Below are positions 31,441 through 32,765 of a DNA stretch of 64,000 bases, piece after piece; within the stretch, counting starts at the first letter, position 1, and each line of letters opens with the position of its first letter. This stretch comes from Candidatus Kapaibacterium sp. GTDB taxonomy: Bacteria > Bacteroidota > Ignavibacteria > Kapaibacteriales > Kapaibacteriaceae. Both the position numbers and the translations under genes were made by a program. The DNA is taken from positions 259,855 through 323,854 of the forward strand of contig JBGAJM010000003.1 of the NCBI GenBank assembly GCA_044224925.1, written 5' to 3'. Below the pieces are notes generated by a model, which had not been told where the DNA came from, did not search any database, and worked only from the letters and a program-made list of their open reading frames with translations.

Positions 31441-31839
31441 TCAATCTTCAATGGCCTCAATACCTAATTGCCGTAGGCGCTCAAGACCTTCTCGCATTGC
31501 CGTGAGCTGTTCAATGGTATGCCCCTGCCACACCGTGATCTCATCGATGATCCTGAGAGGGTGGGAGGAGCGATATGATCTTGTCGGGTTGCCAGGGAAC
31601 TTCTTGTCGGTTAGGTTTGGATCGTCTTCAAAATCACCCGTTGGCTCAACGACGAAGATCCTTTGTCTCCCATCACCAGATGCAAGCTCAGCACCCCAAA
31701 TGGCAGCATCGAGTGTCGCCGTGAAATACACGTACTTGGCCGTTCGACCTTGTCCGTAGTTAGACACATAGCCTGGTCCGATTAGGTCGCCGGTCCTCAA
31801 GTCTGCCTTTGTGCCGTGATAGTACTTCTCCTTGTCCAT
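31441..31839 (-). CDS. arr: Arr-family rifampin ADP-ribosyltransferase homolog
   Basis: 132 aa; YHGTKA, AIWGAELA, VVEPTGDFEDDPNLTDKKFPGNPTRSYR, PLRII...IED closely mirror the Arr-2/Arr-ms signature. Confidence 0.85.
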   Translation of the reverse strand: MDKEKYYHGTKADLRTGDLIGPGYVSNYGQGRTAKYVYFTATLDAAIWGAELASGDGRQRIFVVEPTGDFEDDPNLTDKKFPGNPTRSYRSSHPLRIIDEITVWQGHTIEQLTAMREGLERLRQLGIEAIED

Positions 31840-31869
31840 AGAATGTTCCTTTGTGTGAAATAGTACGGT

Positions 31870-32550
31870 TCATGAACCCGCCGAAGCAGATATGGTCGCC
31901 GTATCTCCGTCCAGTCGAACGAATTCAATTGATTCGCCAATGAAGTACGAGTCTCCAATGACGAGGAGGATCAGTTCGGGGATCGAAGAGTCGTTCGTGC
32001 CCGTGGTACGACGGGGCCTCCATCTTCCGACGATCGTCGGTTGTGCACCGGCACGATCAAGACATGCTTCATACAACTTCAACAAACGCTCCGGACCACT
32101 TGCATACAACCCCATATCAGTATCGACCGGAGGGAGAAAGCGAGCGAAGCTTGTAAAGAACTTGAAATCGTGAAAACCCTCGAGCTCTCGAACGTGGGTA
32201 TCCCATAGGTCCTTCAGGAATAGCTCAGGGGAACTCACTGCATGATTGAAGTAGAGTGAAACGTGATCGTCCACCATGGGCCACAAGAGCGGATGATCTG
32301 AGTAGAACTGAGGCCATTGTGCACTCGTGCCAGGCTTGTGAAGGCCATCACAGAATCCACCAATGACAATATTCCAATGCTGCTTTGTCGCATCAGCTTC
32401 GTTGCCTGTATCGAGAACGAAACTCACGCAAAGTCGCGCGTTGTCAAGCTGAGAAACCGACGTGATCGTGAGCCCTCCAAACTCCTCATACTTGAGGTCG
32501 TCGTAGGTCTCCTCGAGACTCGTCGGTAGGATGTCATCACGTTCCTTCAT
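31870..32550 (-). CDS. hypothetical 226-aa protein, no recognisable motif (partner of arr)
   Basis: clean ORF; start ATG overlaps the stop of the upstream small ORF (ATGA); 30 nt upstream of arr. Confidence 0.6.
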   Translation of the reverse strand: MKERDDILPTSLEETYDDLKYEEFGGLTITSVSQLDNARLCVSFVLDTGNEADATKQHWNIVIGGFCDGLHKPGTSAQWPQFYSDHPLLWPMVDDHVSLYFNHAVSSPELFLKDLWDTHVRELEGFHDFKFFTSFARFLPPVDTDMGLYASGPERLLKLYEACLDRAGAQPTIVGRWRPRRTTGTNDSSIPELILLVIGDSYFIGESIEFVRLDGDTATISASAGS

Positions 32551-32765
32551 GCTGTTCCTTGGTCGTCATTCACAACGAGGTTCGCCTTCTCTCGAGCGAC
32601 CCCGATCGTCGCAATGCTTCCGGAATTGAAGTGTAAGAAATCGGATTCGATGCCGTCCGAGAAGATCACGCCATGTGTCGGCATGAGTGATTCGACGGTC
32701 AGTGATGCTTGTCGAGAGAGCACACCGGCGGCCAGCCGGATCGAATGGTTCAATTGTACCCCCAA
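32547..32765 (-). CDS. small ~70-aa protein, family member 1 (TTG start)
   Basis: paralog of 36316..36522 (3 aa changes for ~9 nt changes); translationally coupled to the 226-aa gene. Confidence 0.55.
   Translation of the reverse strand: MGVQLNHSIRLAAGVLSRQASLTVESLMPTHGVIFSDGIESDFLHFNSGSIATIGVAREKANLVVNDDQGTA

Follow-up and report, generated by a model that had tools for sequence, protein, structure and literature searches.

A minus-strand cluster of three open reading frames (ORFs) in Candidatus Kapaibacterium sp. contig JBGAJM010000003.1 encodes a 132-aa protein of the Arr family of rifamycin ADP-ribosyltransferases, preceded by a 226-aa protein and a small ORF listed at 72 aa; it lies within a 64,000-nt stretch of that contig, referred to throughout as the window. 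We consider it highly probable that this cluster represents an ordinary arr resistance gene lodged in a repeat-bounded hypervariable hotspot, accompanied by a gene fragment and by an accessory gene on which arr does not depend. Support for this reading comes from a complete set of Arr motifs, from surveys in which arr and its upstream companions are not linked elsewhere, and from related strains in which the whole unit is missing between flanks that are otherwise shared.

Arr signature and relatives

The assignment of the 132-aa protein to the Arr family, made in the initial annotation from motifs, was borne out by profile searches. Pfam model PF12120 was matched over its whole length (E 1.1e-49, 167 bits against a cutoff of 25), and the NCBIfam equivalog NF033144 (NAD(+)-rifampin ADP-ribosyltransferase) scored 220.6 bits against a cutoff of 130 across residues 4–132 of 132. 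Residues 5–131 align without gaps to the mycobacterial enzyme Arr-ms (PDB 2HW2; E 7e-50) at a constant 11-residue offset, so that H8, Y38 and D73 correspond to H19, Y49 and D84 of Arr-ms. Features regarded as functionally defining in mutagenesis, structural and survey work on Arr proteins include HGT (with H19), SN[YF], Y49 and the catalytic D84 within DPN[VL], together with rifampin site 1 and the C-terminal M[RK][DE]xL helix (PMC6092378, PMC8492726); the rifampin-binding segments are DPN[VL] with its loop (Arr-ms 84–95) and that helix. A check of these catalytic and rifampin-contact motifs recovered all of them, as H8-G-T, S25-N-Y, Y38, D73-P-N-L, DKKFPGNPTRSYR and M-R-E-G-L. The rifampin-binding segments DPNLTDKKFPGNPTRSYR and AMREGL align with DPNVTDKKLPGNPTRSYR and AMRQGL of Arr-ms, and DPNL(T)DKK(F)PGNPTRSYR and MREGL match structurally defined rifampin contacts of that enzyme.

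Comparison of the window with a second strain, represented by contig L113 (Logan, SRR32046558), revealed 16 synonymous and 3 non-synonymous changes in arr, giving a ratio of non-synonymous to synonymous polymorphism (pN/pS) of 0.06, the same value as for the conserved core gene next to the unit, which encodes a 1206-aa protein sorted by the type IX secretion system (T9SS). Judged from these features, the 132-aa gene appears to be an ordinary, functional-looking Arr rifamycin ADP-ribosyltransferase, whose product would move ADP-ribose from NAD+ onto a hydroxyl of the rifamycin ansa chain and thereby inactivate the drug and render the cell resistant. Functionally tested Arr proteins of all clades confer rifampicin resistance (PMC8492726). 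The proposal that the gene is a rifamycin-resistance determinant on horizontally acquired DNA is likewise supported, given the complete Arr motifs and the strain-variable unit. The closest relatives in species-representative genomes share 64–74% identity and come mostly from Saprospiraceae, Chitinophagaceae, Hymenobacter and Pontibacter, 74% being the highest identity to any such genome. Across 72,556 plasmids, arr homologs were common, with 1734 records and identities reaching 74%; identity to the arr of clinical plasmids is about 61%.

Companions of arr

All three annotated ORFs were found on the minus strand between 31441 and 32765, with the TGA of the small ORF and the ATG of the 226-aa gene forming an ATGA overlap (plus-strand tcat at 32547–32550) and a measured gap of 30 nt, containing a Shine-Dalgarno-like AAGGAA, separating the 226-aa gene from arr. 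Comparison with a sister-strain contig and with the homologous leader copy ahead of the next gene makes a TTG at 32753, giving 68 aa, the more likely start of the small ORF. No terminator-like sites were found on the minus strand in the two short intergenic junctions of the unit, the three minus-strand matches within the unit all falling inside coding sequences, and scans for sigma-70 promoters and intrinsic terminators did no better than on shuffled sequence. From the spacing and the terminator-free junctions, we infer that the three ORFs probably share a single transcript.

The initial annotation had also described the two upstream ORFs as a conserved partner pair and had raised the possibility of a toxin/modulator or defence-type ADP-ribosyltransferase module, neither of which is supported by the loci surveyed. 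Neither the 226-aa protein nor the small ORF had a homolog within ±6 kb of any of the 80 closest Arr genes of species-representative genomes (0/80; 64–74% identity, mostly Bacteroidota); reciprocally, inspection of the neighbourhoods of 226-aa homologs yielded no arr at 24 metagenome loci or on two further contigs (0/24 and 0/2), leaving no conserved linkage in either direction. A same-strand ORF ending within 60 nt upstream of arr was present at only 7 of the 80 loci, and the commonest neighbour families recurred at 8 and 7 of them. This survey agrees with the published finding, from work that included 392 Bacteroidota genomes, that arr has no universal genomic context (PMC8492726). PADLOC, applied to the three ORFs and seven neighbours at E ≤ 0.01, returned no matches, and NCBIfam models likewise yielded nothing informative for the ORFs of the island. 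Furthermore, arr and the 226-aa gene differ in synonymous divergence between the window and L113 (0.175 and 0.06, respectively), which suggests separate histories for the two genes.

As annotated, the 226-aa protein has no recognizable motif: no Pfam, NCBIfam or PADLOC match was obtained for it, and the 72-aa ORF is likewise without a Pfam or NCBIfam match. An exhaustive profile search recovered 1012 cluster representatives of its family at E ≤ 1e-3 (613 at E ≤ 1e-10), or about 1000 clusters at 50% identity, nearly all members being stand-alone proteins of 200–215 aa; the impression of a tiny family left by a word-seeded search (16 relatives) was thereby overturned. Among 40 diverse members no Pfam family was detected, one member carrying ankyrin repeats. 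An AlphaFold2 model built from a 40-sequence alignment consists of two alpha/beta halves (predicted local distance difference test 88, predicted template modelling score 0.83), and a Foldseek comparison of this model with PDB and BFVD gave no match (best E 0.05, template modelling score at most 0.27), making the family a candidate new domain family. The 226-aa protein and the 233-aa protein of the next unit, each encoded after one copy of the small ORF, were considered as paralogs and rejected as such. On the plasmids, the 226-aa protein found one weak match (22.7% identity) and none beside arr.

In L113, a stop codon replaces an invariant tryptophan of the 226-aa protein (W90, in the HPLLW motif) and the gene has lost 92 nt at its 3′-end, with the small ORF and arr intact beside it. 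The pN/pS of the 226-aa gene is 0.41–0.47 versus 0.06 for arr. These comparisons suggest a gene under relaxed constraint that is decaying and dispensable for arr; it belongs to a widespread, uncharacterized accessory family that is integron-borne elsewhere and appears here as a hitch-hiker. Family members do occur as single-gene integron cassettes on two metagenome contigs (L101 and L103). The arrays on these contigs (L101 1–7197, L103 1–9265) span 7–9 kb, with each gene followed by an attC-like repeat of ~200 nt bearing the complementary cores R″ AGGCAAC and R′ GTTGCCT/GTTACCG, and one cassette encodes a DUF6348 protein.

By sequence, the small ORF appears to be a chimera in which the T9SS-gene leader and some ten codons are joined to the 3′-terminal ~55 codons of an NAD-kinase-like gene. 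Its first ~10 codons copy the start of the T9SS gene (MNHSIRLAA), the 55 homologs found in 5.8 billion sequences align only from “LAAGVL...” onward, and the fusion point displays a shared L-A-A(G) microhomology; longer relatives, called as ORFs of ~97 aa, possess further conserved N-terminal sequence. In other assemblies (L002/L003, L005 and L004), an SPFH/Band7 gene is succeeded by a ~260-aa frame whose 3′-end is the homolog. When the L003 frame is joined conceptually, its product shows similarity to human mitochondrial NADK2 (7r4j; E 3.7e-5) along three collinear segments, and the small-ORF region is covered by the last of these. The small ORF aligns only with the last ~55 residues of these NAD-kinase-like relatives, in which VIGQDG, NDLFIG and STxAGSTGW all lie upstream of the homologous part, and no NAD kinase core motif (GGDG-type, NE/D or the (S/T)GSTA/GW glycine-rich segment) was found in it. 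Because the catalytic-core segments lie outside its homologous part, the small ORF is taken to be a fragment and not a kinase. As a presumably non-functional chimera, it may act only as a translated spacer ending in the ATGA overlap.

Several observations concern the parent family of this fragment. The NADK2-like gene lies 3′ of the SPFH/Band7 gene at 7504–8294 in L002/L003, 7540–8306 in L005 and 7420–8126 in L004, and in two species from three assemblies its frame is interrupted at an identical point (…NDLFIGASS / HISARYK…) that has no homopolymer; this shared break may reflect conserved recoding or a shared pseudogene state. Further frame breaks in L004 and L005 resemble assembly errors. Stand-alone ORFs of 39–45 aa that correspond to the C-terminal ~40 residues of the family (MPxxGVIFSDGIExDFLxFNSGSIATIG...) also occur, on a JGI 3300047160 contig (P0050) and as P0051–P0067, one of them between a Cys/Met pyridoxal-phosphate-enzyme gene and citrate synthase with no space for a full gene. 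Macro-domain and NUDIX/NrtR genes, which relate to ADP-ribose and NAD metabolism (L002/L003 10832–12595), lie ~2.5 kb from the SPFH/NADK-like pair, which may be coincidental.

A repeat-bounded hypervariable hotspot

Three direct copies of a module of ~104 nt lie on the minus strand (31320–31423, 32726–32829 and 36483–36586), the module being made up, in order, of heptamers T[TC]GT[CA]AC, hexamers resembling TTGTCA-16-TATGTT, a GGGGG, a start codon and 9–10 codons (MNHSIRLAA) (leader copies A, B and C; Table 1). Copy A, which begins 5 nt past the arr stop, is the downstream direct repeat of the arr unit; copy B is 80% identical to 31320–31423 (repeat family D2), and between copies B and C the similarity continues over 265 nt (91% identity), taking in the small ORF. 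The small ORF, the 226-aa gene and arr are all missing from two related genomes, namely L112 (GCA_018266735.1), whose shared genes are ~93% identical at the DNA level, and L114, represented by a JGI contig. Positions 9716–9909 of L112 equal window 32998–32805, and L112 from 9918 onward equals the window from 31430 downward, with L114 arranged likewise; in both, the heptamers directly adjoin the flank, with the leader and the 1206-aa gene coming next. From this direct junction and the spacing of the 104-nt repeats, the arr unit is therefore identified as a 1,406-bp insertion. Its GC content is 0.516, and third-position GC (GC3) of arr and the 226-aa gene is 0.56 versus 0.66–0.73 in core genes.

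The unit had been annotated as driven from a heptamer-repeat leader. A leader copy does stand upstream of it, but with only two or three degenerate heptamers (TCGTCAC TTGTTAC TTTTGAC), the clean array of four to five TTGTCAC being located instead downstream of arr (31401–31435), ahead of the next gene. We propose that 1,406 bp of DNA of foreign composition would have entered the promoter/leader of the conserved T9SS-secreted protein gene, most likely through single-crossover (Campbell-type) or unequal homologous recombination in the leader, which would leave a 104-nt direct repeat on each side and provide the unit with its own copy of the resident promoter/leader. Repeats of 104–265 nt at 80–91% identity, together with the mosaic leader described next, fit such general homologous (Campbell-type or unequal) exchange.

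Variation extends beyond the arr unit. In L006, L007 and L088, the copy C flank is joined directly to the leader, the small ORF and the 226-aa gene; these strains lack the 3,757 bp that separate copies C and B, with genes of 233, 240 and 371 aa, and they have a mosaic leader derived from copies A and C. In L115, a DUF1330-like gene comes after the VOC gene, and the heptamers are where the contig ends. The 43-codon remnant of the L112 227-aa gene, located just outside copy B, appears to mark an older replacement event at the same hotspot. Altogether, five strains have five different gene contents between the VOC gene and the leader, and the interval from the VOC gene to the T9SS gene is a hypervariable hotspot.

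Tandem heptamers T[TC]GT[CA]AC, often after AACTCGTCAC, occur at four places in the 64 kb versus 0.07 expected. The fourth array occupies the argC-argD spacer and ends 1 nt before the argD start codon, and heptamer number differs between strains, with 5 in the window and ~8 in two blocks in L112 and L114. The heptamers might be bound by a regulator or act as a promoter element, or they may be a repeat prone to recombination.

An integron-cassette identity for the unit was considered and rejected, since no attC is present: no attC-like short-range inverted repeats were found in any intergenic spacer of 31300–41300, and direct heptamer repeats begin 5 nt beyond the 3′-end of arr. Pfam scans of ORFs ≥150 aa between 19.8 and 44.7 kb revealed no integron integrase, the only mobility gene being an IS256/Mutator-family transposase, and no recombinase adjoins the units.

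On one side, the unit is flanked by the gene for the 1206-aa T9SS-sorted protein, a gene for a cNMP-binding (cyclic nucleotide monophosphate) regulator and an arginine-biosynthesis operon; a cluster mate of the 1206-aa protein at ≥90% identity, from a Bacteroidota metagenome-assembled genome, is named T9SS type A sorting domain protein by NCBI. On the other side lie VOC/glyoxalase, DinB/DUF1572 and DUF1330-like genes, unknowns and the IS256-family transposase, with GC falling from about 0.58–0.60 to 0.49–0.52 between 32 and 39 kb. The transposase breaks synteny with L112 and L114, and the element is probably multi-copy or widespread because an identical protein is found on 18 contigs. An Rfam scan of the whole window recovered only a cobalamin riboswitch, far from the unit, and ARAGORN identified no tRNA as an integration site.

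Table 1 Features of the arr locus, its repeats and its surroundings (window coordinates unless another contig is named)
Feature	Position	Strand	Details
T9SS-sorted 1206-aa protein gene	27727–31347	minus	conserved; source of the duplicated leader; Por_Secre_tail 23.6 bits, cutoff 27 (sub-threshold Pfam)
Leader copy A	31320–31436	minus	TCGTCAC and 4x TTGTCAC, TTGTCA-16-TATGTT, GGGGG resembling a ribosome-binding site, ATG, first codons of 1206-aa gene
arr unit (1,406-bp insertion)	31424–32829	minus	104-nt repeats 1406 nt apart; missing from L112 and L114
arr (132 aa)	31441–31839	minus	ORF call
226-aa ORF	31870–32550	minus	ORF call
Small ORF (72 aa as listed)	32547–32765	minus	ORF call
Leader copy B	32726–32830	minus	degenerate heptamers, promoter-like hexamers, GGGGG, start codon, 9–10 codons; upstream direct repeat of arr unit
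Second variable unit	32831–36322	minus	genes of 233, 240 (WD40-like, weak) and 371 aa (BNR-like, weak)
3′ remnant (43 codons) of L112 227-aa gene	32843–32998	minus	gene intact in L112 (9188–9871)
Leader copy C and second small-ORF copy	36323–36587	minus	repeat family D1, 91% identical to 32566–32830; heads second variable unit
Heptamer array	21409–21439	plus	
Heptamer arrays	31401–31436; 32814–32830; 36564–36594	minus	
Heptamer arrays, related genomes	L112 9880–9960; L114 9880–9950; L113 1205–1256		
IS256/Mutator-family transposase	41223–42515	plus	Pfam Transposase_mut, E 7e-44
Cobalamin riboswitch RF00174	49911–50057	minus	32.7 bits versus gathering threshold 31.5; overlaps 5′-end of ORF 48567–50087 (minus)

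Alternative readings and known systems

The three genes might instead constitute a functional module, in which the 226-aa protein, perhaps with the small protein, would serve as modulator, immunity/antitoxin-like partner or substrate adaptor of a defence or toxin ADP-ribosyltransferase. Close spacing on one strand, the ATGA overlap and the similar GC and GC3 of the 226-aa gene and arr are compatible with such a unit, as are the occurrence of this gene pair in two strains, the fusion of one 226-aa-family member to ankyrin repeats and the presence of members in arrays of small accessory genes. We nevertheless judge a module most improbable, given that no pairing was seen at the 80 Arr loci or the ~26 226-aa-family loci and PADLOC gave no match, that in L113 the supposed partner is disrupted by a stop in place of an invariant residue and by a 3′ deletion, next to an arr that is intact and strongly constrained, that Arr retains every rifampin-contact motif, and that the synonymous divergences of the two genes suggest separate histories. 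It is also very unlikely that the protein is an Arr fold with a mainly non-rifamycin substrate, or with a physiological role in stress or DNA damage as proposed for mycobacterial Arr; non-resistance roles have been reported in mycobacteria (PMC3138739) and the environmental host has no obvious rifamycin exposure, yet the profile score is at equivalog level, the rifampin-binding segments are conserved with Arr-ms, and resistance has been conferred by tested members of all clades (PMC8492726).

A further alternative concerns the insertion site and holds that the heptamer array and leader form a dedicated att-like capture site, recruiting promoterless units in tandem ahead of the T9SS gene, in place of general homologous recombination. 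Three direct copies of the module do stand at unit boundaries, the variable DNA stops directly upstream of the heptamer array in each examined strain (followed by the leader in L006, L112 and L114), heptamer number differs among strains and a fourth array exists in the argC-argD spacer. Against this, no recombinase adjoins the site, the sole mobility gene being the IS256-family transposase ~5 kb beyond the units; the repeats, given their length and identity, suffice for RecA-dependent exchange; the mosaic leader of L006 is typical of homologous exchange; and attC-like inverted repeats are absent, so that a dedicated site seems unlikely. The related idea that the heptamer/leader module is a lineage-specific hotspot, distinct from integrons, that gives each captured unit a resident promoter, ribosome-binding site and start codon, with arr as one cargo among others, is also improbable; if true, heptamer/leader capture would amount to a promoter-duplicating cassette-capture mechanism distinct from integrons.

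Our preferred reading, that of an ordinary arr gene in a hotspot, has points standing against it. The promoter-like hexamers of the leader are not statistically above shuffled sequence, and the 226-aa gene and arr have been kept physically together in both the window and L113. The parent family of the fragment is only weakly assigned to the NAD kinases (Pfam NAD_kinase_C E 0.0038, sub-threshold), and the small ORF is open in all four of its versions, with too few substitutions for pN/pS to tell constraint. In addition, the enzymatic role of Arr and the resistance are predictions from sequence, and the recombination route is a reconstruction from its end-products.

Under this preferred reading, the locus adds one more environmental Bacteroidota arr allele, whose presence/absence polymorphism within a lineage is useful for resistome bookkeeping and unsurprising. 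It also illustrates that tight, operon-like spacing at a resistance gene need not point to a functional module and can be left behind by recombination; the scars in this case comprise the duplicated leader, the gene fragment and the decaying hitch-hiker. Two by-products may merit attention, namely the ~210-aa family with its ~1000 clusters and the repeat-bounded hypervariable hotspot.

Among known systems, the reference chromosomal enzyme Arr-ms of Mycolicibacterium smegmatis (2HW2) is aligned without gaps and shares H-Y-D, HGT, SN[YF], DPN[VL] and the M[RK][DE]xL helix; the window protein differs in being 11 residues shorter at the N-terminus, in belonging to a Bacteroidota and not an actinobacterial host, and in being encoded on a strain-variable insertion and not at a fixed locus. 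Arr-2/Arr-3 integron cassettes on plasmids of Gram-negative pathogens (ARR-2, PDB 9IBA) belong to the same family (E 4e-44 to ARR-2) and similarly are mobile accessory genes using a promoter supplied by the insertion site, but the window unit lacks attC and an integron integrase and is bounded by direct repeats of a resident leader. Integron cassettes of unknown function (L101, L103) likewise carry members of the 226-aa family, whereas the window 226-aa gene has no attC and is built into a three-ORF unit. Chromosomal arr genes of Bacteroidota (PMC8492726) provide the closest relatives and likewise have no universal context; relative to these, the window copy is at most 74% identical and is polymorphic for presence and absence within its own lineage.

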